From: Escherichia phage kaaroe
Sequence record: MN850574.1
DNA length: 64,000 bases
Direction: 5' to 3' (one strand)
Both the position numbers and the translations under genes were made by a program. Shown here piece by piece: positions 2,198 to 49,094 of this stretch (positions within the stretch are counted from its first letter, which is position 1; each line of letters starts with the position of its first letter). The notes beneath the pieces are model-generated. The model saw only the letters and a list, made by a program, of their open reading frames with translations. It was not told where the DNA came from and searched no databases.

Positions 2198-5100
2198 TAA
2201 TTTTCCTCTGTGTCGGATTCTTCGGATCGCGTGGATTCCCTATATTATCCTTCAACCGTTTATCTACAAGTTCACGGAACATAGAGAATGTTACCGCCGA
2301 CTGGTCAAACAGTGGACTCATTGCAAATCTTCGTTCGCTTGCTTTAAGTCCGTGGAACAATTCGCTGTTCTCCTGATCATATTCAGGAGGAACCGGAAAT
2401 TCTTCACCAATTAAAGGTGAAGTCAAATATAATGCTTTTCCGGTAAGCGGGTCTTTCTTAATGTTTCCGTCAACGTCAAGGTCTGCCACCCGATCAGGAT
2501 ACACGCTAGGCAATCCGCTGTCAAACTTATAATTTTTCAGAGATTGAATTATAGTCTCGGTGTGCTTCATGCTTAACCCGCTGTTAATGAACATTGTAAG
2601 CAGGGTAACACCGATAAACCCAAAGCCGACAGGATGAACGAATCGCATTACATCATTTGCATAGCGCGAAACTGGCAATGCACTTTTAATCTTCATGGTG
2701 TATTGGCTTCGTGAGCGGTTGATATAGTCGATTGAACTACTCAACAACTCTTTACCACGTACACCAACAAGGATCATCCCTTCAAACGCTGTTTTCTCTG
2801 ATTTGATCACTTGACCTTCTTCGAACCGCCCGATCAGGTTATGAATGGTTACTCGCCAGCGTAGGAGACCACCTTCATATTCCCTTTCAAGATACGTCAC
2901 GTTAGCCCGTCCGGTTGGAGTATAAATCGTGCGACCTACGATATCCTCGTCAATGTTCGTTGAACTAACAACAATATCATACTCTAGTCCGGCTTGTGAT
3001 TCAACCTCAATTTCCACATCTTCATTATAAAGTAACTTAAACAAGAACTTATAAGAAGCCTCCACGCCCTTAGTGGAATAAAAATCTGATTTGCGGGATT
3101 CAAAGAATCTTACTACCGCATCTCGCTTGTTTTTATCTGCATAGATGTTTCGTTTGTTCATCTCTGACCAAAGATACTCATATGCATCTTTCTCGCGTGG
3201 ATATTTGTTTTTAATCAGATTTTTTAGTTTATTATAATATGTTCCTGAACCATCGCTTAAGAATTGCAGATAATATTCAGAGAATTTTCTGAAATTTTCG
3301 TTCTCAAGTAAAAAGCTATCAGGGGTCATCTTATTCAGTAAAGGCCGCAAATCTGGATCTTGCTCTCGATCGTAGTGAACCGGAACCCAGGGAACCTCTC
3401 GAACCTGATTTTGCAATTCAGCAACAAATGCTACATTTGTAGGTTTCCAATATACACCAACCTGATCACGAACACGATAATTAAATTGATAGAATCCTAT
3501 GATCTCTCCTGTGTTTTTATGGAACATTACACCGGATGCATATTGTTTGAATCCTTCAAATTTAACATTGTTAAGATAACAGGTCACGGTCCCTTTATCA
3601 TAAACTTCTCGGTTGACCCTATTTTGGTCAAGAATGCCAGACGTATCAACTTCTTGAGTATAGATAACCTCTGGATAAACAACCAACGGGCGATTATCAT
3701 TTGTGATCCACACACGGACACCGTTTCGACGCATCCATGTATAATCAGCCTCGTTATAATACGCTTGCGGTCCTAACTCCCAAATACGCAAATCATCATA
3801 ACTTGCTCTGAAAGTAGTTTGATGTATTTTCTTATCAGTTAGATAAGTTGGCTCCTGAGAATATTTTACAGCTTCTCCCAATTCATACTTCTCGGCAGTT
3901 TCTGGATCAGGTAAAATGCTTTCGAAGTGATGATTATAATGGCTTATGAACACCTCATCACCATTGGTTGACATATTACTGAACCCATGCTGAATATATT
4001 CCCTTTCCTGCGGAGTGTTGCCAAATACTCTCTGAAAAGACAGACCATCACTCCCTATTAAGTATACACCCGCATCATCTGACGGAACAACGTTTTCTGG
4101 TTTAGTTGGATCTTGATAACGCTGTTTAACTTCACCCGTAACAAATACAAGCAATTTACCGTCGATCACATCCATTTTCTGAATGACAGCTTTATCATTT
4201 CCTGTTACTCGGATAACATCAGGATCGAATATTTTTTCTCCAAACGTAGGCGAACCCTGTACGGTATCAACAGGAGTATTCTTAAGACGAATCCGGCGAA
4301 TAACATCTTTAGCACCAACCCACAAATAGTCATCACTACACGCCATAGCTTCGGCGTATTTTGTGGTATCACCTGTTAATCTGGAAAATACACCAAAGAC
4401 CTCAACGTCAAAGCCTAAATCGTTTTCGTCACCGACCTTTGCAAAAGTGATCGTATCATCACTAAATCGAACATCGTCCGCGCTCCATCGAGTATCGCTC
4501 GCTTGTCGTCCGTAAAAGATTCGGTCATATCCTAAAACGTAAGTAGTGGTTTTAGACTGATAAACGCATGTACGGGAAACCGGATTGCCTACACGGTCAT
4601 TAAAAGCCTTGTATGCTTTCCATGATTGGCCTTTATCATTTGACACTTTCACGATCGGCTGGAACCGTTCGAAAAGGTACAAAACACCGTTCATTTCCGC
4701 TAACATAGTGCGGTTTATATCAGTACAAACTTTTTCTATGTGGTCCTGTATTTCATGAAAGTTCTCATCAACTACAATGTAGTTTGAGATATTTGTCATG
4801 TTTGCATATTCAGGACTAAAGACAAAATCTTCCTTCATCAATGATGCTTGAATCAGGTCAGTATTAAACTTGACATACTCTCGATTATCGTATGTAAATT
4901 TTTCCTTTATAAACTCGTTTGCAAGGTTGAACTCTCGCATCATAGAAAAATTATATGCGTTTGTTTTAAATGTCTGAAACTCTTCTGTCTCAACCCATTT
5001 ACTTTGTTCAAATCCTTCTGCGGCTACTGCTACACGAAACTTGTAATAATATTCTGGAAAAAGGTTTTTATCCTCAAACCAGTTTTGTTCGGCAGTATAT

Positions 5101-14376: not shown

Positions 14377-14754
14377 ATGATGATGATGTTTAAAGATAAA
14401 TTCGAATGTCACTACACCCGTAACTTTGACTTAGTATCCCGCTACTACATTCATAAAGAAACTGGCACGCAAGTAGTTCTTGAATCTCACAGCGAAGTAG
14501 GATTCGATTCAACAAAAGTAGCAATTAGTGCTCGCTTCTGGGATAACGGCAAATTTGCTTATATCGCTTGGAACGACGACGAAAATGTAATTACAGTAGC
14601 TTTCGGTGATGACTACTACACTAAAAAGACTTTCGATAGCAAGCCATCAAATGAATACCTGAAAGCGTATGTGCAGCACATGTTCCAACGTGTTCTGACC
14701 GGAATGGAAATCAATGTCATGAAAGACATTGTAGACGAAGTAAAATATTCTTAA
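14377..14754 (+). CDS. hypothetical early protein (125 aa)
   Basis: ORF directly behind promoter with strong RBS. Confidence 0.6.
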   Translation: MMMMFKDKFECHYTRNFDLVSRYYIHKETGTQVVLESHSEVGFDSTKVAISARFWDNGKFAYIAWNDDENVITVAFGDDYYTKKTFDSKPSNEYLKAYVQHMFQRVLTGMEINVMKDIVDEVKYS

Positions 14755-25643: not shown

Positions 25644-26239
25644 TGGCGCAATTATATTTCTACTATGCATCTATGAACGCTGGCAAATCAACTTCTCTGT
25701 TACAAAGTGCTTATAACTATACCGAACGTGATATGCGAGTATTAATTCTTAAGCCAGCGATTGATAATCGAGATTCAGAAAGTGAAGTTGTTTCCCGAAT
25801 TGGTCTAAGTGCTCCAGCGATCACCTTCACTGAATCGGATGATCTTTTCGACTTGGTTTATCGTGAATCGTTAGGTAAGCGTAGACCAGATCGCTGGCGT
25901 CCTGATGCTGTATTTGTAGATGAAGCCCAATTTATGACTAAAGAGCATGTTTTAGGCTTGTGTGCGCTTGTTGATGATGCAAATATCCCTGTACTGTGCT
26001 ATGGCCTTCGCACTGACTTTCAGGGCAATCTATTTGAAGGATCTGCGGCATTGATGGCATTTGCTGATAAACTGGTCGAAATGAAGGGTATTTGTCATTG
26101 TGGCAAGAAAGCAACAATGGTCCTTCGTGTAGATAAAGAGGGTAATGTTATTCGCGATGGTGCTCAAATCGAAGTTGGTGCAGAGGATAAATATGTTTCT
26201 GTGTGCCGTAAACATTTTATTGATGGCACTACCAACTAA
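25643..26239 (+). CDS. tk: thymidine kinase
   Basis: 198 aa; P-loop ASMNAGKST, VDEAQF, CxxC...CxxH zinc motif; similar to T4 Tk. Confidence 0.85.
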   Translation: MAQLYFYYASMNAGKSTSLLQSAYNYTERDMRVLILKPAIDNRDSESEVVSRIGLSAPAITFTESDDLFDLVYRESLGKRRPDRWRPDAVFVDEAQFMTKEHVLGLCALVDDANIPVLCYGLRTDFQGNLFEGSAALMAFADKLVEMKGICHCGKKATMVLRVDKEGNVIRDGAQIEVGAEDKYVSVCRKHFIDGTTN

Positions 26240-26258: not shown

Positions 26259-26298
26259 CCCCAGATTATAAATATAACTGAATATTTTAAATCTGGGG
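26259..26298 (+). promoter_or_regulatory. stem-loop (9-bp stem) enclosing an exact late promoter box TATAAATA
   Basis: ccccagatt...aatctgggg inverted repeat; TATAAATA at 26267-26274; 34 nt upstream of ATG 26308. Confidence 0.4.
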
Positions 26299-26307
26299 GA
26301 ATGACTT

Positions 26308-26610
26308 ATGTCATTTATTCGTAAAACTCTAACAGCGGCAATATGCTTGACTGCGGTCGGAAGTGTCAGTGCTGATCAATATGATCCAACTGGTGACTTT
26401 ACTGATTATTTCGACGGTGCAATGATAGTATATGTAAACAAAATATCTCCTTCCATTGAAACCAGCCAGAAATTTCATGCCCATATTATGAAGATGTATG
26501 CTCGTAGTAAATGTATGGATTCTAAGCAGTGTTTTATTATGGGGGAATATGCCGCACAACAGTTTGTTATGTTGCATAATATGGAGAATAGAGAACATGA
26601 AATTCATTGA
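26308..26610 (+). CDS. secreted hypothetical protein (100 aa)
   Basis: Signal peptide MSFIRKTLTAAICLTAVGSVSA. Confidence 0.55.
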   Translation: MSFIRKTLTAAICLTAVGSVSADQYDPTGDFTDYFDGAMIVYVNKISPSIETSQKFHAHIMKMYARSKCMDSKQCFIMGEYAAQQFVMLHNMENREHEIH

Positions 26611-27322: not shown

Positions 27323-27478
27323 ATGATTAATCCAGTAGCCGCAGCACTTGCTTCCGAAGAAACTTTGAAGTATATGGTAGAACATGCAGCAAAGAAAGGA
27401 GAAATTGTTGCTGCCGATGAGATCGTAGAAACCATGCTCCGCGATCCGAAGGGTAACACCGCAAAGTTTTTTCGGTGA
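27323..27478 (+). CDS. small protein (51 aa)
   Basis: ATG behind promoter with AAAGGAGAATCAAA RBS; below track cutoff. Confidence 0.45.
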   Translation: MINPVAAALASEETLKYMVEHAAKKGEIVAADEIVETMLRDPKGNTAKFFR

Positions 27479-27522: not shown

Positions 27523-27861
27523 ATGCAAAATGATGTGATTGAAATTATTATGAATCAATACCGAAACCGGATTTGGTCTGGACGTATCAAAGAAGAAAAG
27601 GCAAAACGGATCATCGAAAAATATGCTGAAAAGACTAAGCAAGCGCCAACGGCTAACAGAGTTATGATTCTTAAATGTCTGGTGCTTTCCGGTGACGATA
27701 TGCCTATTGATGCAGAGACAGCCACCGATTTTCATAAGACCTATCGCCAGTGTGATGTAATTTTTACTTCTGGCTTCGGTAGTTATGACTCTATTATGTG
27801 GAATTTAATGCACCTTGACTCAACGATCTGGGATGTGCTTTCAGAGGAGGGTTACAAATGA
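27523..27861 (+). CDS. hypothetical protein (112 aa)
   Basis: ORF with RBS. Confidence 0.5.
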   Translation: MQNDVIEIIMNQYRNRIWSGRIKEEKAKRIIEKYAEKTKQAPTANRVMILKCLVLSGDDMPIDAETATDFHKTYRQCDVIFTSGFGSYDSIMWNLMHLDSTIWDVLSEEGYK

Positions 27862-28208
27862 ACATTGACATTCAACGACTAATTGATCACCTTCATGCGG
27901 GAATACCTTATCATGGCGACGTTACCCGCGATATTCTTGATGTGTTGGAATATACCCAGCAAGTGATCAACGAAAAGCAAGCATTAGAATCACGGATCGA
28001 CGAGGCAATAGGAAATATTGCAACCGAAGATGAATTAGATAATCACTTTGGACCTGTTCTTGATGCTCTTATGGCTGCGCGTGATACCAAACTGAAACAG
28101 GATAAACAAGAATTTATCCTTGATGGTTTAGCTCGTTATCACAATGCAATTGATATTATGAATAACCAGCATGATTATGCTATTAGTATTTTGCGAGGTC
28201 TGGCATGA
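27858..28208 (+). CDS. hypothetical protein (116 aa)
   Basis: ORF with GGAGGG RBS; start overlaps upstream stop. Confidence 0.5.
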   Translation: MNIDIQRLIDHLHAGIPYHGDVTRDILDVLEYTQQVINEKQALESRIDEAIGNIATEDELDNHFGPVLDALMAARDTKLKQDKQEFILDGLARYHNAIDIMNNQHDYAISILRGLA

Positions 28209-28489
28209 AAGACACAAACGAATTTAACGGTATTAAGGTAAGCCCGAATTTTATTGTTCCATCACTGGTGACTAAGCTGAATGGTCATATGGTCGCTTTG
28301 TCTTCCACACCGCCAGAATCAGGAAAGTTTATCACTATCGTAGTTTATGCGGGGCAAATTTTCTCTCATGATTGCTGCATGAAAAATGGTCAGTTGATGG
28401 TTGCAAATTATGACTATGGAGACCTTGAATGGGAAGTTTTAGATCTGGCTAAAAGTGCTGAAATTCTGGGCTATATTCGATTAGTTTAA
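28205..28489 (+). CDS. hypothetical protein (94 aa)
   Basis: ORF overlapping upstream stop. Confidence 0.5.
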   Translation: MKDTNEFNGIKVSPNFIVPSLVTKLNGHMVALSSTPPESGKFITIVVYAGQIFSHDCCMKNGQLMVANYDYGDLEWEVLDLAKSAEILGYIRLV

Positions 28490-28506: not shown

Positions 28507-28535
28507 TTGACAGCGATCCGGTGTTATTGCATAAT
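28507..28535 (+). promoter_or_regulatory. early promoter TTGACA-17-CATAAT (PeSL-like)
   Basis: -35 28507-28512, -10 28530-28535, leader ACACCCATCGAAACGAGATACAC. Confidence 0.65.
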
Positions 28536-28576: not shown

Positions 28577-28798
28577 ATGGCAACTGTTAAAATTATCAAA
28601 TCTTCCGCTGGTTTCGGTTTCATGCGTGGCGCTAAGTACCCGATGATTATTGAAAACGTTGCCATCGAAGATGGTATGGCTAAAGTAACCAGCCGTCAAT
28701 TGTTCGAAGCGGGTGTTAAAACTGCTGAATCATGGGCGCTTCGCTATCCTAACAAAACATGGTCTTTCTTCCTGGATGGTGAAGCAGAGGTCATCTAA
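28577..28798 (+). CDS. hypothetical abundant early protein (73 aa), KIEIID-family relative
   Basis: VKIIKSSAGFGFMRGAKYPMIIENV resembles 30924/31140 paralogs; biased codon usage. Confidence 0.6.
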   Translation: MATVKIIKSSAGFGFMRGAKYPMIIENVAIEDGMAKVTSRQLFEAGVKTAESWALRYPNKTWSFFLDGEAEVI

Positions 28799-28816: not shown

Positions 28817-28840
28817 GCCCCTTAATTGGGGCTTTTCTTG
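28817..28840 (+). terminator. intrinsic terminator
   Basis: gcccc-ttaatt-ggggc hairpin then TTTTCTTG. Confidence 0.55.
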
Positions 28841-28852
28841 TGAGGAAATTTT

Positions 28853-29638
28853 ATGGCAATATCTTCTGGATGGGTAGGATCATCTGCTGTGTCCGAGACT
28901 GGTCAACGGTGGATGAGCGCCGCAATGCAAGCTGTACGCTTAGGTCGTCCGGCGTATATGTCGGCAATGGTCGGACGCTCTAAAGAGATTCATTATAGCA
29001 TTGGTGCTAGTAACTCTTACAATAAAGACACTCTTATTAACTGGATGAAAGCACAAGGATCTACTCCGGTAGTAATTACTATCACGGGTAATATTGTTTC
29101 CCAATCTACTGGCGTTCCTTGTCTTGATTTCCCTAGCTCACTGACAAACGAATATGTAACACTCATTATTAACTCTGGTGTTCATGTATTAGGTCGTGGA
29201 GGAAATGGCGGAAGTAACTCTGCTGGTGGAGCAGGAGGAAATGCAATAAATAACGGAATTGGAACTCGTTTAAGAATAAACAATAATGGTATTATTGGTG
29301 GTGGCGGTGGTGGCGGTGCTGGTGCTAGATACAATCCTTTCCCTCAAATGGATATGAAATTTGGCGGCGGTGGAGGCCGTCCATTTGGTGCTGCGGGTGC
29401 GGCAGGAGGCGGCGCAGCGGCAGCATCTGCTGGTACAATTTCTGCCCCAGGTAAAGGCACTGTTTCTGGGGTTCATTATGGAGGAGATGGTGGAGATTTG
29501 GGAGCTGCTGGCAAATCTTCATATATTAAAGGTGGTACTGGTGGAACTGTTCACTCGGGTGGTGCTGCGGGTAAAGCTGTTACTGGTAATGCCCCTCGCT
29601 GGGATAAAGTAGGCACGATCTACGGTGCTCGCGTGTAA
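28853..29638 (+). CDS. glycine-rich protein resembling gp38-type tail-fibre adhesin
   Basis: 261 aa; N-terminus GSSAVSETGQRWMS and GRGGNGGSNSAGGAGG plus poly-Gly tracts resemble remembered T2-type gp38. Confidence 0.5.
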   Translation: MAISSGWVGSSAVSETGQRWMSAAMQAVRLGRPAYMSAMVGRSKEIHYSIGASNSYNKDTLINWMKAQGSTPVVITITGNIVSQSTGVPCLDFPSSLTNEYVTLIINSGVHVLGRGGNGGSNSAGGAGGNAINNGIGTRLRINNNGIIGGGGGGGAGARYNPFPQMDMKFGGGGGRPFGAAGAAGGGAAAASAGTISAPGKGTVSGVHYGGDGGDLGAAGKSSYIKGGTGGTVHSGGAAGKAVTGNAPRWDKVGTIYGARV

Positions 29639-29645
29639 TTTTATG

Positions 29646-29677
29646 GGCTATCCTTCGGGGTAGCCTTTTTTGTTTTT
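29646..29677 (+). terminator. intrinsic terminator (UUCG tetraloop)
   Basis: ggctatcc-ttcg-gggtagcc hairpin then TTTTTTGTTTTT. Confidence 0.7.
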
Positions 29678-29682
29678 GGGTG

Positions 29683-29710
29683 TTGACAAAGATAATCACA
29701 ATGCTATAAT
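29683..29710 (+). promoter_or_regulatory. early promoter TTGACA-16-TATAAT
   Basis: -35 29683-29688, -10 29705-29710. Confidence 0.65.
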
Positions 29711-29739: not shown

Positions 29740-30030
29740 ATGACCACTGAACAATTAATCAAGCATATCCGAAACATCATCTGGGATCTGTCTGGTGATA
29801 AAGAGGAACAAGCTGAACGCATTTTGGCTAAACTCTATAAGCGCCGTGACCGTGGATTATCAGCAAAGAAAGTAGAAACTTTCAAAGAGTTATCTTTCAT
29901 CGAAGCTAAAAAGGATGGATTAATTTATCAGTTGACAGATGGTTATTGGTGCTATGATAATACTCGCTATGACACCGCGACCGATGCATTAAAAGCATGT
30001 AATGACCATCTTCGCAAAACTACAATTTGA
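29740..30030 (+). CDS. hypothetical protein (96 aa)
   Basis: ORF behind promoter, AAGGAGAATCAAAG RBS. Confidence 0.55.
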   Translation: MTTEQLIKHIRNIIWDLSGDKEEQAERILAKLYKRRDRGLSAKKVETFKELSFIEAKKDGLIYQLTDGYWCYDNTRYDTATDALKACNDHLRKTTI

Positions 30031-30683: not shown

Positions 30684-30934
30684 TCACCGGATATATTCCA
30701 TATTCAACGACAAAACACATTATCGGATTCGAAGACATAGAAAAGTCTTGCTTTCCTCTCAAGGTTGAAGTAGACTTTATTACAGCGAACGGATGGGCTT
30801 ACGTCACTGTTTCAGAAATGAAGCGCGTAGGGTGGGAAAACTGCATACACCTACCGCATCTTATCCTAGATGTTCGCGCTGGTGAAATTGATATTGCTGG
30901 AAAGATCTATGGAGACAATGTAAATGAAAATTGA
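30680..30934 (+). CDS. hypothetical protein (84 aa)
   Basis: ORF overlapping upstream stop. Confidence 0.5.
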   Translation: MITGYIPYSTTKHIIGFEDIEKSCFPLKVEVDFITANGWAYVTVSEMKRVGWENCIHLPHLILDVRAGEIDIAGKIYGDNVNEN

Positions 30935-31121
30935 AATTATTGATGACGGTGGATTTTCTTTCATGAATGGCGTTAAACTTCCTATCATCGTGGAAGGTCG
31001 TCGTTATGGGCTTGATTATCTTGTAGAAACGCAGGAACTACAAAAAGCTGGCGTACCAATTAAAGGTTATTTTCCTGAATATGAATGGTGTTTTCGTGCA
31101 AATGAAGCCTGGGCGGTATAA
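30924..31121 (+). CDS. KIEIID-family small protein, paralog A
   Basis: MKIEIIDDGGFSFMNGVKLPIIVEG...YEWCF. Confidence 0.5.
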   Translation: MKIEIIDDGGFSFMNGVKLPIIVEGRRYGLDYLVETQELQKAGVPIKGYFPEYEWCFRANEAWAV

Positions 31122-31139
31122 CTAATTGAGGATTATATT

Positions 31140-31397
31140 ATGAAGATTGAAATTATTGACCGTGCTGGGTATACTTTCATGGAAAAAGTTAAACTTCCTA
31201 TCATTGTTGAAGGTCGCCCATTATGTCAAGGATTCATGATAAAGACCAGAGAACTACGAAATGCGGGTGTTCCTGTTGAATCATGTTTCAGTGATGATTA
31301 TGAATGGTGTTTCAGTGGTTTACGTGCACATAAAGTAAAAGAAGCACGAAAAGCATCATGGTTTGCTAGCTTTAATAACTGGTTGAGGAAACTGTGA
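31140..31397 (+). CDS. KIEIID-family small protein, paralog B
   Basis: MKIEIIDRAGYTFMEKVKLPIIVEG...YEWCF; tandem with 30924. Confidence 0.55.
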   Translation: MKIEIIDRAGYTFMEKVKLPIIVEGRPLCQGFMIKTRELRNAGVPVESCFSDDYEWCFSGLRAHKVKEARKASWFASFNNWLRKL

Positions 31398-33838: not shown

Positions 33839-34270
33839 ATGGTTTATCCAACCCCTAGTAAGATTTACATTGACGATACTCATTTTCTTGTTGAAATTAT
33901 GGGTATCAAGTTTAGTGGTAATGTTAAAATTGTAGAATGGGAATTGCACGGTCAATCTGTAACCGATTATGACCATTATATCCCTTTCGGTGGCGATGAT
34001 AACTTTGTTTCATTCGACCATGAAGGTTACATGAACTTTGAGCAAGACGATGTACCTTTGTATCTGGCAATGATGGATATTCCTACTAAAACAGAATATA
34101 CAGAGGGTGATTGCGATTGTTGCGGATACTACAGCGTAACAGATATTAAGCTGCTATCCGGTAAAGAACTTTACAAAGAGGATCATTTCGGAAACTGCAA
34201 TTTTCCGTGTGATTGGCAAGAATTTTTCGAACTGGTAGAGATTGAGCGAACTTATGTGAGGAAGGGATAA
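33839..34270 (+). CDS. hypothetical Cys-rich protein (143 aa)
   Basis: GAGGATTATATAATG RBS; CDCCGYY...CNFPCDW. Confidence 0.5.
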   Translation: MVYPTPSKIYIDDTHFLVEIMGIKFSGNVKIVEWELHGQSVTDYDHYIPFGGDDNFVSFDHEGYMNFEQDDVPLYLAMMDIPTKTEYTEGDCDCCGYYSVTDIKLLSGKELYKEDHFGNCNFPCDWQEFFELVEIERTYVRKG

Positions 34271-35082
34271 TGAAGAAAGCATTAGGTTTAATTCCCTATA
34301 CTGGCAATAAGGAAAAGTTATTGCCGGGTGTTAGTAAGTATTTCCCTAAGCACTATAACCGCTTTGTTGATGCCTTTTGTGGCGGCTTGAGCGTGTCTCT
34401 GTACGTAGAAGGGGATGTGCTGGCTAATGACTATGATCACCGCTTAATTGAAGCGTACAAAGCGATTGACGAGTGTCCTGATCCGGTTTCTACGATCAAG
34501 CGGATTATTGCCGAGAATGATTTGTCTCGTGATGATAAAGATGCTTACATGGCATTCCGTAAGAAGTATAATGAGAATCCAGATCCGCTATCTCTGTTTG
34601 TTCTGATTCAGCACAGTTTTAGCAACATTAACCGTCATAACAGGAAGGGCGAATTTAATGCTAATTTTGGTCGCCGGACTTTTAACGAAAACGCGGTAGA
34701 GCGTGTCCTGAATTTTAAGGAAGAAAACAAAGACGGTCGAATCAGTTTTACGTCTGGTCGTTATGACGAGATCGAGATCTTGCCAGGTGATTTCGTTTAT
34801 TTGGACCCGCCGTACCTTATCACTTCTGCGGAATATAATAAGTTCTGGAGTGACGAGGAAGAGATTAAATTCTATCAGTGGGTAGAATCTATTATGGCGC
34901 GTGGTTTTCAGTTTGGTATAAGTAATGTCACGCATCATAAGGGAAAGGCAAATGATCATCTTCTTGACTTTATCAAGCGGAATGATTTAAACTGCGTCTT
35001 GTTGAATAAGACCTATTGCCTAGATCGTTCAGGTGGCAAGTCTTCTGATACGCAAGAAGTTTATGTAACTAACGTAGATTGA
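34270..35082 (+). CDS. dam: DNA adenine methyltransferase Dam
   Basis: 270 aa; FVDAFCGGLSVS (motif I) and DPPY (motif IV); collinear similarity to remembered T4 Dam. Confidence 0.85.
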   Translation: MKKALGLIPYTGNKEKLLPGVSKYFPKHYNRFVDAFCGGLSVSLYVEGDVLANDYDHRLIEAYKAIDECPDPVSTIKRIIAENDLSRDDKDAYMAFRKKYNENPDPLSLFVLIQHSFSNINRHNRKGEFNANFGRRTFNENAVERVLNFKEENKDGRISFTSGRYDEIEILPGDFVYLDPPYLITSAEYNKFWSDEEEIKFYQWVESIMARGFQFGISNVTHHKGKANDHLLDFIKRNDLNCVLLNKTYCLDRSGGKSSDTQEVYVTNVD

Positions 35083-35090
35083 GGTATAAC

Positions 35091-35372
35091 ATGGTAGAAA
35101 TTTTTGGTTTTGAAGGTTACAACTGTAAGTATTGCCAGAATGCAAAGCGCCTTTGTGAAGCGCGTAAGATCCCTTACATCTACATTCCGGTTAATGATGG
35201 TGTGGACGAAAACGGTCGCCCGGTAAAGATTGATTCTATCATTGCCGATATTCAGGATCGCGCAGGGGTAGAAGTTATTGCCACCATGCCGCAGATTTTC
35301 TATGATGGTGATTATATCGGTGGCTTTGATGAGTTCCGATCCTTTGTAGTCAAAAACAAGATTAATGGTTAA
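35091..35372 (+). CDS. nrdC: phage thioredoxin/glutaredoxin NrdC-like
   Basis: CKYC redox motif, TMPQIFYDGDYIGGFDEF like T4 NrdC; ATG at 35091 (track begins TTG 35079). Confidence 0.75.
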   Translation: MVEIFGFEGYNCKYCQNAKRLCEARKIPYIYIPVNDGVDENGRPVKIDSIIADIQDRAGVEVIATMPQIFYDGDYIGGFDEFRSFVVKNKING

Positions 35373-35396: not shown

Positions 35397-35870
35397 ATGT
35401 TACTGACTGCTAAGAGTGCTAAAGAGTACAAACAAGAACTATTCGAAAAACAGGGGGGCATTTGCCCCCTTTGTCAATTGCCACTTTTTGAGGATATGAG
35501 CAAAAACCATCTTGACCACGACCACGATCTAGATGGGAAAGGGCAAGGCCGCGTAAGGGGATTGCTTCATTCGTGTTGCAACCGCCTAGAAGGATCGTTG
35601 ACCGGAGACTTTAAACGGTTTGGTGTTGGTGCTTTAGGTGCTGATTTCGTTGTTTGGGCTACAAACTATGTTAATTACATCAAAGGAGACTACACCAACA
35701 ATCATTTACATCCTCAATATGCTGTTGATAAAGTAAAACGATTTTCACGCTTGACACGCGCGGAGATGGTTGATATTATGGACGCAGAAGGTTTCGATTA
35801 CTGCGACGCTGATACAAGAGAAGAGATCACGAAGAAGTATAAGAAACAATTTATACAAAGATTAAGATAG
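35397..35870 (+). CDS. 49: endonuclease VII (Holliday junction resolvase) gp49
   Basis: CPLCQ...HLDHDHDLDG...RGLLHSCCN matches T4 EndoVII zinc/His-Me motifs; ATG at 35397. Confidence 0.85.
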   Translation: MLLTAKSAKEYKQELFEKQGGICPLCQLPLFEDMSKNHLDHDHDLDGKGQGRVRGLLHSCCNRLEGSLTGDFKRFGVGALGADFVVWATNYVNYIKGDYTNNHLHPQYAVDKVKRFSRLTRAEMVDIMDAEGFDYCDADTREEITKKYKKQFIQRLR

Positions 35871-45141: not shown

Positions 45142-45429
45142 ATGTTAGTACACAATGCAATCGCACACATGGTTTATTCTCGATTTGGGCGCATGGAAGA
45201 AATCAATATTACCGACGCAGATTTAGATCTGATGCAAGTCGAAGGCCAGACATATCTGAAAAATAACGGCGTGAATATCGGTAAAGCGCGTGTGCGTGAA
45301 TTGTTGGTTGAATATATTCTCTCTGAATTTGGCATTAGTGCTTTCGGTGTGAAAGAGATTGCACCTAAGCGCGAAATTTCTGATAAAATGATCAAGAAAT
45401 GCCAGAAAGAACGACGTAAGGGTTTCTAA
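45142..45429 (+). CDS. hypothetical protein (95 aa)
   Basis: ATG with GAGGAATATATTATG RBS (track ORF begins TTG 45124). Confidence 0.5.
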   Translation: MLVHNAIAHMVYSRFGRMEEINITDADLDLMQVEGQTYLKNNGVNIGKARVRELLVEYILSEFGISAFGVKEIAPKREISDKMIKKCQKERRKGF

Positions 45430-46898
45430 TGAAGATTGAAACATTAATCGCATTGCCAGCGGCGGGGAAAACTGATGCTATACTTTCCCACGTCCTAGAG
45501 ACAAAAGAAAAAGCGGTTATTGCTTCGCCATCTCGTGTTTTAAGTGAACAATCTTACAATAAGTTTAAAAGAATGGGCGGTCGTGCTGTCTTGATTGATA
45601 GCACAAGACTAAGAAGCCTTAAGACAGTGCAAGCGTCGATAATGCAATCAGTTAAAGATGGTGCTGATGTGATATTCATTACACATACAGCGTTATCTAA
45701 TATGGAACGTTCAAAAATGTTTGGTGATTATGCTCTTTACATTGATGAAGTTCCTCAACTGGTTGAATTTAATGAGTATCCGTTTAAGTCTAATCTTGAA
45801 CTTATCACGAAGCATTGCGAACCAATCGCCGACGAATCGGAATGCCTACAGAACTTAGTTCTAAAAGACTCTGAGAAGGCCGCTATCAAAGAAAAGATAG
45901 AAAGTGCGAAGGATGGTACTGATATGATCGATTCTTCTCTTAGAGGGCTTTATGAGGCGTTATTAGAGAAGAAAATCAACGTTATGGTAAAACATAACGA
46001 AGGACACCGGAAGAATGGGTCGAAAATTGTTTTCTTGAACGATAACAAACACGGTACGTGGGGAGACTTTAAAAAGGTTACGATAGCATGTGCAAATCTC
46101 TTTGATACATATAGTGGGAAGTATCTACGATACTATGCAAATTGCGATTTTGTTCCGAGTGCGCTAGAATCCAGACTATATTTCAAAGAGTATAAAAATA
46201 CAGATAGAGTTAATATCATCCTTATGACGGACTCTGAACGATGGTCGCGTCACCAGTCAGAAACAAACAATACCTTTGAACGTCTTGTTGATATGGTTAA
46301 AAATGAATGTGGCGATGACTTCATTTATACCGTGAATCGGGACCGTGAAGCGTGTACAAATGGTATTGGTGAGCGGATACCTTACGGGTCTTATGGTCTT
46401 AACTCTTACATTCATCATAAAAATGTTGCTGTGATGTTCAGCTTTAACCCTCAACGATGGGAGATTGATATTTTAAAAGGTCTTGCTAATAGTTGTGATC
46501 TCCCGACAAACGAGTTTTTGAAAGCGCGTCATGTGTCTGATTATCTGGAACCAGCATTTCAATTATGTTTGCGTTGTAACCTGAGAGACAACGAGAGCAA
46601 GGAGAATGTTAATCTATATGTTCCTGATTGGGCGTTGGTGGATTATCTAAAAACGTTTCTGCCTAATGCCAATGTAATAACAGATCGAATGATTCCGCTA
46701 GAATGTGGTGAACGTAAAGGGCGAAAATCATTTAAAAAGATGTTCGACTTTAACGAGCAAGAGAATGCAAGATTTAACGGATTTAAGTACCGCATGAAGA
46801 AAAAAGGAAAAACTCTTGATCCGTCTGACGGCGAATCTGTAGAGATGGTTAGAGTGTGGATAACTAAGCAAAGAAAGTATAATGGTAATGGGGAATAG
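45429..46898 (+). CDS. P-loop NTPase, helicase-like (function unknown)
   Basis: 489 aa; Walker A ALPAAGKTD at residues 8-16, Walker B ALYIDEV; occupies the position of alpha-gt in T4. Confidence 0.6.
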   Translation: MKIETLIALPAAGKTDAILSHVLETKEKAVIASPSRVLSEQSYNKFKRMGGRAVLIDSTRLRSLKTVQASIMQSVKDGADVIFITHTALSNMERSKMFGDYALYIDEVPQLVEFNEYPFKSNLELITKHCEPIADESECLQNLVLKDSEKAAIKEKIESAKDGTDMIDSSLRGLYEALLEKKINVMVKHNEGHRKNGSKIVFLNDNKHGTWGDFKKVTIACANLFDTYSGKYLRYYANCDFVPSALESRLYFKEYKNTDRVNIILMTDSERWSRHQSETNNTFERLVDMVKNECGDDFIYTVNRDREACTNGIGERIPYGSYGLNSYIHHKNVAVMFSFNPQRWEIDILKGLANSCDLPTNEFLKARHVSDYLEPAFQLCLRCNLRDNESKENVNLYVPDWALVDYLKTFLPNANVITDRMIPLECGERKGRKSFKKMFDFNEQENARFNGFKYRMKKKGKTLDPSDGESVEMVRVWITKQRKYNGNGE

Positions 46899-48068: not shown

Positions 48069-49094
48069 ATGAAAATTTTGCTTTTAGGTGATCTGCATAC
48101 TGGTATCGGTGGCGATGATCCGTGGGTGCATGAGTATATTCTTGATACCATCAAGAAGGCGGTTGAATACTCCAAAGAGCATAATATTAAGACATGGATT
48201 CAAACAGGGGATTGGTTTGATTGCCGAAAAGCAATTACCCATGAAACCATGAAATTTAACCGTACTAAGGTCATCCCATTACTGGAAGAGGCTGGAATTA
48301 CTTGTTATATCACGGTCGGGAACCATGATATGTTTAAACGAAACAAGATCCAGCCTAACGCACCGCGTGAAGTGTTAAGCCAGTATGATTGCATTAAGGT
48401 TATCGATAAACCGGAAACAGTTACCTTTGATGGTGTATCATTTGATCTGTTCCCGTGGTTTTGTGATGACAATAAATCAGAGATTTTAGAGTTTATTCAA
48501 AACTCATTCAGCGAATATTGTGTAGGCCATTGGGAATTGTCCGGTTACTATTTCTATAAAGGGCTAAAATCCGAAGGTTATAGCGCGGACTTCCTCAAGA
48601 AATACCGTGAAGTGTTTTCCGGTCATTTTCATACTATCAGCGATGGCGGTAATGTAACGTATATCGGTACACCATACACACTAACGGCGGGTGACGAAAA
48701 CGATCCGCGTGGGTTTTGGGTATTCGATACCGATACACACAAAAAAGAGTTTATCCAGAATGACAAAACTTATCATGTGCGTATCACTTACCCGTCAGAT
48801 GATAAAATCGATGTAGAACGCTTTAAGGGGCTTAGTGTGCGTCTTATTGCAACGGTTGCTGATAATGGGTTAACTAAGTTAGAAAGCGCGTTAGAGGCCG
48901 TTGTACACAAGCTAAAAGTGGTCCATAAACTGGAGAGTAGCGCATCACAGGAAACAGGTGTTATTGAAGTTAAAAGCACTATTCAGATGGTATATGAATA
49001 TCTGGAAGAACAAAACCTAGAACCGGAAGAACTTGCGGCGGTCAAGCGTATTTCTGATGAACTTTTAGCCGAGGTAAATAGCGCAAAAAGTTAG
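48069..49094 (+). CDS. 47: recombination endonuclease subunit gp47 (Mre11-like)
   Basis: 341 aa; phosphoesterase motifs GDLH, GDWFD, GNHD, GHWE, GHFH; collinear with T4 gp47. Confidence 0.9.
   Translation: MKILLLGDLHTGIGGDDPWVHEYILDTIKKAVEYSKEHNIKTWIQTGDWFDCRKAITHETMKFNRTKVIPLLEEAGITCYITVGNHDMFKRNKIQPNAPREVLSQYDCIKVIDKPETVTFDGVSFDLFPWFCDDNKSEILEFIQNSFSEYCVGHWELSGYYFYKGLKSEGYSADFLKKYREVFSGHFHTISDGGNVTYIGTPYTLTAGDENDPRGFWVFDTDTHKKEFIQNDKTYHVRITYPSDDKIDVERFKGLSVRLIATVADNGLTKLESALEAVVHKLKVVHKLESSASQETGVIEVKSTIQMVYEYLEEQNLEPEELAAVKRISDELLAEVNSAKS

Follow-up and report, generated by a model that had tools for sequence, protein, structure and literature searches.

A predicted gp38 adhesin gene displaced into the early region of a Krischvirus phage carries a receptor-binding segment resembling that of Tequatrovirus phages

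The window analysed here is a 64-kb stretch of the genome of Escherichia phage kaaroe (MN850574.1). The gene under study, g38, has an ATG start and encodes 261 aa plus stop according to the ORF list of the window. It lies between a 73-aa ORF and a 96-aa ORF, with the following features in and around it:

23021-23443: RegB (Pfam)
25643-26239: tk (PF00265, E=1e-51)
26267-26274, + strand: TATAAATA, the late-promoter box closest to g38 on its 5' side, 2.6 kb away and ahead of rI (motif search)
26308-26610: rI antiholin (Pfam)
28507-28535, + strand: TTGACA-17-CATAAT, an early promoter of sigma-70 type and the closest one 5' of g38 (promoter scan, 11/12 matches)
28577-28798, + strand: 73-aa ORF immediately 5' of g38, function not assigned (PHROG 7345, E=4.9e-34)
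28817-28840, + strand: weak terminator or attenuator directly 5' of g38, made up of the hairpin GCCCC-TTAATT-GGGGC and then TTTTCTTG (terminator scan)
28842-28845, + strand: Shine-Dalgarno sequence GAGG of g38, 7 nt 5' of the ATG (read from the sequence)
28853-29638, + strand: g38, long-tail-fibre tip adhesin gene (ORF list; Pfam, PHROG and PDB matches)
28853-28972, + strand: N-terminal gp37-attachment domain, aa 1-40 (PF21721 Gp38_N)
29168-29590, + strand: Gly-rich receptor-binding segment, aa ~106-246 (Gly-rich motifs alternating with variable segments; identity profile)
29645-29676, + strand: intrinsic terminator 3' of g38 (hairpin at 29645-29666 with a 9-bp stem and TTCG tetraloop, then a T-run; -14.7 kcal/mol)
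29683-29710, + strand: strong early promoter TTGACA-16-TGcTATAAT (12/12 matches, with TG), driving the 96-aa ORF
29740-30030: 96-aa ORF 3' of g38, preceded by the promoter at 29683-29710
34270-35082: dam (Pfam)
35091-35372: nrdC-like glutaredoxin (Pfam)
35397-35870: endonuclease VII (Pfam)

Baseplate genes occupy the minus strand at the start of the window. The annotation of the related phage GEC-3S accounts for the hub protein gene (g5), g53, g4, g2 and g3 in this part, and ORF lengths together with the T4 gene order point to g8, g7 and g6. Two paralogues of the 73-aa ORF were found at 30924-31121 and 31140-31397. The 3.5-kb region around g38 is 98.5% identical to that of Krischvirus FL37 and 92 to 98% identical to those of dozens of further Krischvirus (RB49-like) genomes, and at least 80% of it is covered in 43 records.

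The g38 product was matched by two Pfam families, PF21721 (Gp38_N; aa 1-40, profile 1-40/40, E=3.9e-18) and PF05268 (GP38; aa 45-261, profile 1-218/218, E=1.1e-70), and by PHROG 2056, described as “tail fiber protein; host specificity” (E=7.8e-100). In the PDB, aa 1-259 aligned with residues 1-247 of the 249 in the receptor recognition protein of Salmonella phage S16 (6F45_D, E=8.6e-49), and a second entry, 9v85_A, matched with E=3.6e-30. The protein contains GRGGNGGSNSAGGAGG at aa 114-129, in addition to poly-Gly runs, and Gly makes up 23% of the whole product and 36% of aa 114-245. Its Gly-rich runs (aa 114-132, 149-158, 171-194, and 236-243) align with those of the RB18, RB49, GEC-3S, and FL15 proteins, with variable stretches between them. 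An earlier note on this DNA had recognised a gp38-like N-terminus and GRGGNGGSNSAGGAGG/poly-Gly motifs, which PF05268, PF21721, PHROG 2056, and 6F45_D now bear out, and the profile or structure comparison with S16 gp38 that it proposed yielded the end-to-end sequence match to 6F45_D. With S16 gp38, the window protein has in common the N-terminal attachment domain, the Gly-rich motifs of the polyglycine-II sandwich and full-length homology, while S16 differs in genus, host, and variable loops. Single-sequence AlphaFold2 prediction without an alignment gave a mean pLDDT of 34.3 and a pTM of 0.25, and since this model is unusable, the fold of the window gp38 rests on sequence homology to 6F45. 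Judged by the E values above, the resemblance to gp38 greatly exceeds what chance would give and is no artefact of composition, and on the same matches membership of the protein in the T2/S16-type gp38 adhesin family is certain. The gene is genuine and functional.

The usual position of a gp38 gene, which does not define the family, is directly 3' of g37. The window gene lies instead between tk/rI and dam/nrdC, and the placement between tk (25643-26239) and the nrdC-like gene (35091-35372) given in the earlier note is confirmed by Pfam. That note had also placed g38 far from the tail-fibre genes. The gene is indeed outside the long-tail-fibre cluster; the distance is not readable from the 64-kb window, in which none of g34-g37 was found, and was taken from GEC-3S, where g37 ends at 153763 and g38 occupies 45726-46505, about 105 kb apart. 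The tail-fibre module of GEC-3S has the order g34-g35-g36-g37, a 79-aa ORF (Dc5; PHROG 402, unknown function), and holin, with g38 absent after g37. The early-region position is common to RB49 (RB49p079), GEC-3S, FL37, Brandy, JEP8, JK32, SSG23, and Makalu_003. The gene is labelled adhesin or gp38 in the records of FL37, RB49 (RB49p079), GEC-3S, and JK32, and the RB49 RefSeq note on RB49p079 reads “g38; similar to T2 and RB69 gp38 adhesin.” Displacement of the RB49 g38 to a distant locus was published by Trojet 2011 (PMC3157838), where Desplats 2002 is cited for it, and a 2025 study found g38 of FL37 and FL38 not near holin (PMC12032242). The displaced position is already known for RB49-like phages and is not a new discovery.

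Among its known counterparts, the window gene most directly resembles the RB49-type genes (RB49p079, NP_891650; Phi1, JSE, GEC-3S, FL37/FL38, and Brandy49), which are found at this locus too, with the 73-aa ORF on one side and the 96-aa ORF on the other, have the same hairpin, terminator, and promoter, and encode an N-terminal stretch of 105 aa that is 98 to 100% identical. The MIZ6 protein is identical to the window gp38, and that of Brandy49 is about 97% identical, with 8 differences. When we aligned 3.5 kb of the window with eight Krischvirus genomes, identity was mostly 90 to 100%, and it dipped to 42 to 78% at about 29115-29576 against RB49, GEC-3S, JEP8, JK32, SSG23, and Makalu_003. In the last 60 bases of g38 it was back at 97 to 98%. 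At the protein level, aa 106-246 are 98% identical to gp38 of the Tequatrovirus RB18 and only 61% and 70% identical to the RB49 and GEC-3S proteins, respectively, whereas aa 1-105 are 98 to 100% identical to RB49 and GEC-3S, only 79% identical to RB18 and 45 to 46% identical to gp38 of FL15 and FL04. The conserved Krischvirus-type N-terminal block reaches about aa 105, and the last 15 aa again differ from RB18. In DNA, 29190-29638 is 90 to 93% identical to the g38 genes of numerous phages of Tequatrovirus and Mosigvirus, the former including RB18, vB_EcoM-UFV13, Kha5h, and Shfl2 and the latter AV109, AV114, and AV115.

An RB18-like segment of 98% identity (aa 106-246) joined to a Krischvirus-type N-terminus of 98 to 100% identity shows exchange of the receptor-binding module between genera. 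The identity profile identifies the segment as a laterally exchanged mosaic block, swapped with a Tequatrovirus-type g38. Variation confined to the receptor-contact segment, together with lateral exchange, is a trait of the gp38 family that this gene shares. The “exchangeable receptor-binding module” of the earlier note is apt in this one sense, that a segment 98% identical to RB18 has been swapped with a Tequatrovirus-type g38. In RB18 and UFV13, unlike in the window, g38 lies directly between g37 and holin, and the exchange between genera occurred despite the different loci of the g38 genes. The mosaic structure of this adhesin is an addition of the present analysis.

According to the fibre architecture described in the literature, one gp38 monomer would cap each long-tail-fibre tip. 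Its conserved N-terminal domain would dock on the end of the gp37 trimer after self-cleavage has removed the C-terminal intramolecular chaperone domain of gp37, and the C-terminal Gly-rich domain, a polyglycine-II sandwich, would present variable loops for contact with an outer-membrane receptor, or with the O-antigen in some strains, so that binding between gp38 and its receptor would set the host range. The window itself is without g37, and we therefore examined the gp37 of the relative GEC-3S, which carries a Peptidase_S74 domain (PF13884) at aa 814-873 (E=9.8e-12) and which, judged by its sequence, is the distal fibre type capped by a gp38 adhesin. A phmmer search of this gp37 against the PDB found gp34-like repeats and not the S16 gp37 tip fragment. 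Pairing with a cognate gp37 is visible in the relatives only, g37 being outside the window.

In previous work on RB49, gp38 was treated as the fibre adhesin for O-antigens or OmpA, and mutants able to grow on strain F17 carried as their sole changes gp38 E230K or E230K plus Y231S (Golomidova 2022, PMC9569957). The 2025 study showed that which of Tsx, OmpA, or OmpF is used by Krischvirus, Tequatrovirus, and Mosigvirus phages is determined by their gp38 variant, the choice in Krischvirus being Tsx or OmpA (PMC12032242), and Mosigvirus AV114 and AV115 use Tsx (PMC10844046). Because the receptor-binding module of the window gp38 is common with that of AV114 and AV115 (91% DNA identity), Tsx is our tentative prediction for its receptor. 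For Brandy49, whose gp38 is 97% identical to the window protein, the authors report an unidentified surface receptor (PMC9569957). RB49 relies on OmpA and certain O-antigens (PMC9569957), and the receptor specificity of the window gp38 probably differs from this.

We then mapped transcription signals around the gene. In the hairpin 5' of the gene (28817-28832), a 5-bp stem closes a 6-nt loop, and the predicted energy is -11.2 kcal/mol (RNAfold) compared to -14.7 and -16.6 kcal/mol for neighbouring terminators. This hairpin is conserved in 9 Krischvirus genomes, and a hairpin between g37 and g38 is also found at the canonical loci of RB18 and FL15. The terminator 3' of g38 is annotated in GEC-3S and Makalu_003. 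The tetraloop terminators on both flanks described in the earlier note are thus half right: the downstream hairpin has a TTCG loop, and the upstream one has a loop of 6 nt. The early promoters it placed on either side are present, as TTGACA-17-CATAAT at 28507-28535 and TTGACA-16-TATAAT at 29683-29710. The former precedes the 73-aa ORF and not g38 directly, is invariant in 9 genomes, and is annotated at the same place in GEC-3S; the 73-aa ORF and g38 are predicted to share one transcription unit.

The late-box motif TATAAATA has only three occurrences in the window, and NATAAATA boxes stand about 30 to 40 nt 5' of g4, g53, g3, and rI. Motif searches found neither TATAAATA nor NATAAATA on the + strand from 26267 to the start of g38, and one late-box match lies inside g38, at 29245. 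In RB49, the sole predicted late promoter of the region is Pl:48756, just upstream of rI (48388-48690), and none was predicted before g38 (45367-46143) (Nolan 2006). The window box at 26267-26274 corresponds to Pl:48756. The earlier note had seen no late promoter box nearby, and there is none on the + strand within 2.6 kb upstream. Late, gp55-dependent transcription would be expected of a virion gene, and an early-type context without a late box counts against the adhesin reading. The literature searched yielded nothing relevant on Krischvirus RNA-seq or transcript data, or on Krischvirus virion mass spectrometry or proteomics.

This setting, outside the tail-fibre module, among early-type promoters and terminators and with no late-promoter box, is what might be expected of a second, spare, or decoy adhesin that accompanies a canonical gp38 next to g37, and the earlier note had raised an orphan or second adhesin, a decoy, and a repurposed glycine-rich fold. 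We reject these readings and consider such a role very improbable. A tblastn search of the window gp38 against 50,697 phage records returned 800 gp38-like places in 795 records, with one place per Krischvirus record among the matches listed, and no second copy was found in the 64-kb window. The earlier note had also suggested looking for another gp38 next to gene 37; the window itself lacks g37, and there is none in the relative GEC-3S, in which g38 does not follow g37. The close relatives W115, MIZ6, and Delraymugoa match unbroken from the end of g37 to holin. A 946-bp probe consisting of the upstream ORFs and the g38 N-terminus was covered in full by 43 records, and in 13 Krischvirus records among the matches listed the match went no further than the 73-aa ORF, ending with its stop codon. 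FL04 and kvi, in which g38 adjoins g37, match the probe in this truncated way, and FL15 likewise carries g38 beside g37 and has an empty early-region site: when read, it contained only a 61-bp spacer between the 73-aa and 96-aa ORFs, made up of a TTGACA-N16-TATAAT promoter with a small internal hairpin. FL15, FL04, and kvi have the canonical order g37-g38-Dc5-holin and a common gp37 C-terminus that differs from the other type. Their T6-like gp38 is of the same family as the window protein, has the same role, and is the sole gp38 of the genome, and differs from it in locus, in the associated gp37 C-terminus, and, for FL15 and FL04, in an N-terminal domain that is only 45 to 46% identical. Dc5 is present in both arrangements and thus does not stand in for g38. 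None of the genomes examined combined the two placements, and this mutual exclusion is independent evidence, from genomes, for the early-region gene being the adhesin itself and not an extra. Decoy and repurposed-fold roles are further opposed by the RB49 mutants, since the point mutations that alter host range (E230K/Y231S) map to this single g38 (PMC9569957).

Record labels such as “distal long tail fiber assembly catalyst” and “tail assembly protein” in GenBank (GEC-3S, JSE, JEP8, and RB18) would suit a tail-fibre assembly chaperone like T4 gp38, absent from the virion. Apart from its gene number and its historical place on the map beside g37, T4 gp38 has nothing in common with the window protein; it is a chaperone and not a virion adhesin, and BLASTP against it (NP_049864) gave E=2.1 and no meaningful alignment. 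The “assembly catalyst” labels are misnomers because the window gp38 is unrelated to the T4 chaperone, and the T4 record itself calls the T2-type “gp38” unrelated and identifies it as the adhesin. A full-length match to the S16 adhesin, which was solved bound to gp37 (PMC9569957), and the gathering of variation in the loop-bearing segment, as receptor contact predicts, also speak against a chaperone, and we hold this function to be exceedingly improbable. A fibre cap that is also an early product with a distinct function inside the cell or in exclusion, for instance receptor masking, would account for the close promoters, all of the sigma-70 early type, and for the missing late box. The N-terminus (MAISSGWVGSSAVSETGQRW...), however, is without a hydrophobic signal-like stretch and corresponds to the conserved gp37-docking domain, and the literature searched gave no hint of such a role. 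A weak hairpin also precedes g38 at canonical, late-transcribed loci, so a new function is not required, and we judge an additional early role highly improbable. We put the probability at about 0.93 that the gene encodes the receptor-recognising gp38 adhesin of a Krischvirus phage and is the only gp38 of the genome.

For g38 we propose transcription that starts at the early-type promoter at 28507 and reads through the weak 28817 hairpin, with long late transcripts as a possible additional or alternative source. Hairpin, g38, terminator, and early promoter form a compact unit between tk/rI and dam/nrdC, within the hyperplastic early region. The hairpin-g38 arrangement may be a conserved attenuator, which would suit gp38 because one gp38 is present per fibre compared to three gp37. 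A broader proposal is that the RB49-type adhesin is a virion protein without its own gp55 late promoter, read from a sigma-70 early promoter through a weak hairpin that travels with g38 and could set a low gp38:gp37 ratio, the unit of hairpin, g38, terminator, and promoter being a movable cassette; we regard this as possible but rather doubtful. If it is true, the adhesin has left the tail-fibre operon and adhesin exchange no longer involves g37. Ribosome-binding sites were also compared. GGAG is the RegB cleavage motif. The site of g38 is GAGG, GGAG is absent in 8 of the 9 late genes of the window, and the first gene after each early promoter carries AGGAGAATCAAA, which contains GGAG. This pattern is too weak to assign the timing of g38, since 15 of the 64 early-region ORFs also have GAGG only.

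The scientific novelty of the gene itself is small, since Trojet 2011 (with reference to Desplats 2002) had described the displacement and the function was shown in 2022. RB49-like phages are common in phage-therapy collections, and annotation pipelines trained on T4 and T2 look for the determinant of host range in the wrong place; the gene often bears the incorrect label “assembly catalyst” or “hypothetical protein.” A single-gene adhesin with a block interchangeable with Tequatrovirus and Mosigvirus versions helps receptor prediction, and the early-region locus would be convenient for retargeting host range with g37 untouched.

The placement polymorphism of g38 within Krischvirus is a further addition of this analysis. 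The arrangement of these genes in FL15, FL04, and kvi is consistent with acquisition of the end of g37 and its matching g38 as one module, and the early-region copy in these phages would have been lost later or was never there. We also considered KFS-EC as an intermediate with two gp38 genes and rejected it, as the additional ORF of 107 aa that follows g37 in this phage bears no similarity to gp38. Promoter-early stem-loop (PeSL) cassettes, which consist of an intergenic G/C-rich stem-loop, a T- or AT-rich stretch, and a strong sigma-70-type promoter, mediate modular shuffling in the hyperplastic regions of RB49 and phi1 (Arbiol 2010, PMC2839356). All three elements occur 3' of g38 (hairpin 29645-29666, T-run, and promoter 29683-29710) and make up such a cassette, and only the hairpin part (28817-28832) occurs 5' of it. 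The PeSL-rich hyperplastic region is a plausible route of the original displacement of g38. Junctions of presence and absence inside the two hairpins were tested and gave no clean fit in the FL15 comparison; homology between the window and FL15 breaks off with the 73-aa ORF, at its stop codon, and restarts just after the -10 element of the downstream promoter.

We examined the base composition of g38, the early-region gene for a gp38 long-tail-fibre adhesin (window 28853-29638). The G+C content of g38 is 48%, rising to 51% in its 3' part, vs 39 to 40% in the 2-kb flanks and 40% across the window. This elevation results from glycine (GGN) and alanine codons, and the G+C content of g38 alone does not indicate that the gene is foreign.

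The gene directly upstream of g38 has relatives within the window:

28577-28798, 73-aa ORF directly 5' of g38, matching PHROG 7345 (labelled as function unknown)
30924-31121 and 31140-31397, two tandem ORFs 2 kb downstream of the 73-aa ORF, its paralogues

The 73-aa ORF is 31 to 32% identical to the tandem ORFs, which share 53% identity with each other, and the three form a small paralogous family. Another paralogous pair of neighbouring small ORFs, whose products are 40% identical across 63 aa (E=9e-10), lies at 22184-22378 and 22360-22620.

A near-invariant leader, (A)GGAGAATCAAA(N)ATG, is common to the window ORFs starting at 14377, 14820, 16377, 16629, 27323, 28577, 29740, and 32044, and those at 27323, 28577, and 29740 have an early-type promoter immediately 5'. 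This leader includes GGAG, the cleavage motif of RegB, a homologue of which is encoded in the window (23021-23443). In contrast to the GGAG of these eight ORFs, the g38 leader carries GAGG.

In genomes without g38 at the early-region site, the 73-aa and 96-aa ORFs that flank this site are separated by a compact promoter, as in the relative FL15:

FL15 3593-3653, compact promoter TTGACA-CGGGGAGAAATCCCCG-TATAAT separating the 73-aa ORF from the 96-aa ORF

In FL15, a GC-rich hairpin is found inside the spacer separating the -35 and -10 elements of this promoter.

The relative KFS-EC combines an early-region g38 with a divergent gp37 C-terminus and an additional ORF after g37:

KFS-EC 3571-3894, 107-aa ORF (MGYWVSSEINTK...) between g37 and Dc5, a small ORF preceding the holin gene

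When compared with gp38, the 107-aa product was unrelated, and its sole PHROG match was a marginal one to "tail protein" (E=0.009).

Makalu_003 carries an additional small ORF (2749-2967), an insertion of ~230 bp relative to the window at ~30248, where it separates the 78-aa ORF from the 153-aa ORF and adds to the indels of the hyperplastic region. The matches of PHB13, E26, and 011D4 to the window are split in two pieces, and these genomes probably contain the same extra ORF. In GEC-3S, dam and nrdC are separated by a gene for a putative HNH homing endonuclease (27552-28307). The window lacks this endonuclease: there the nrdC-like gene (35091-35372) comes immediately after dam (34270-35082; junction 35082-35091).

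Three late-promoter-like boxes are grouped inside 90 bp at the tk/rI junction, 5' of rI:

26186, + strand, GATAAATA
26248, + strand, CATAAATA
26267, + strand, TATAAATA
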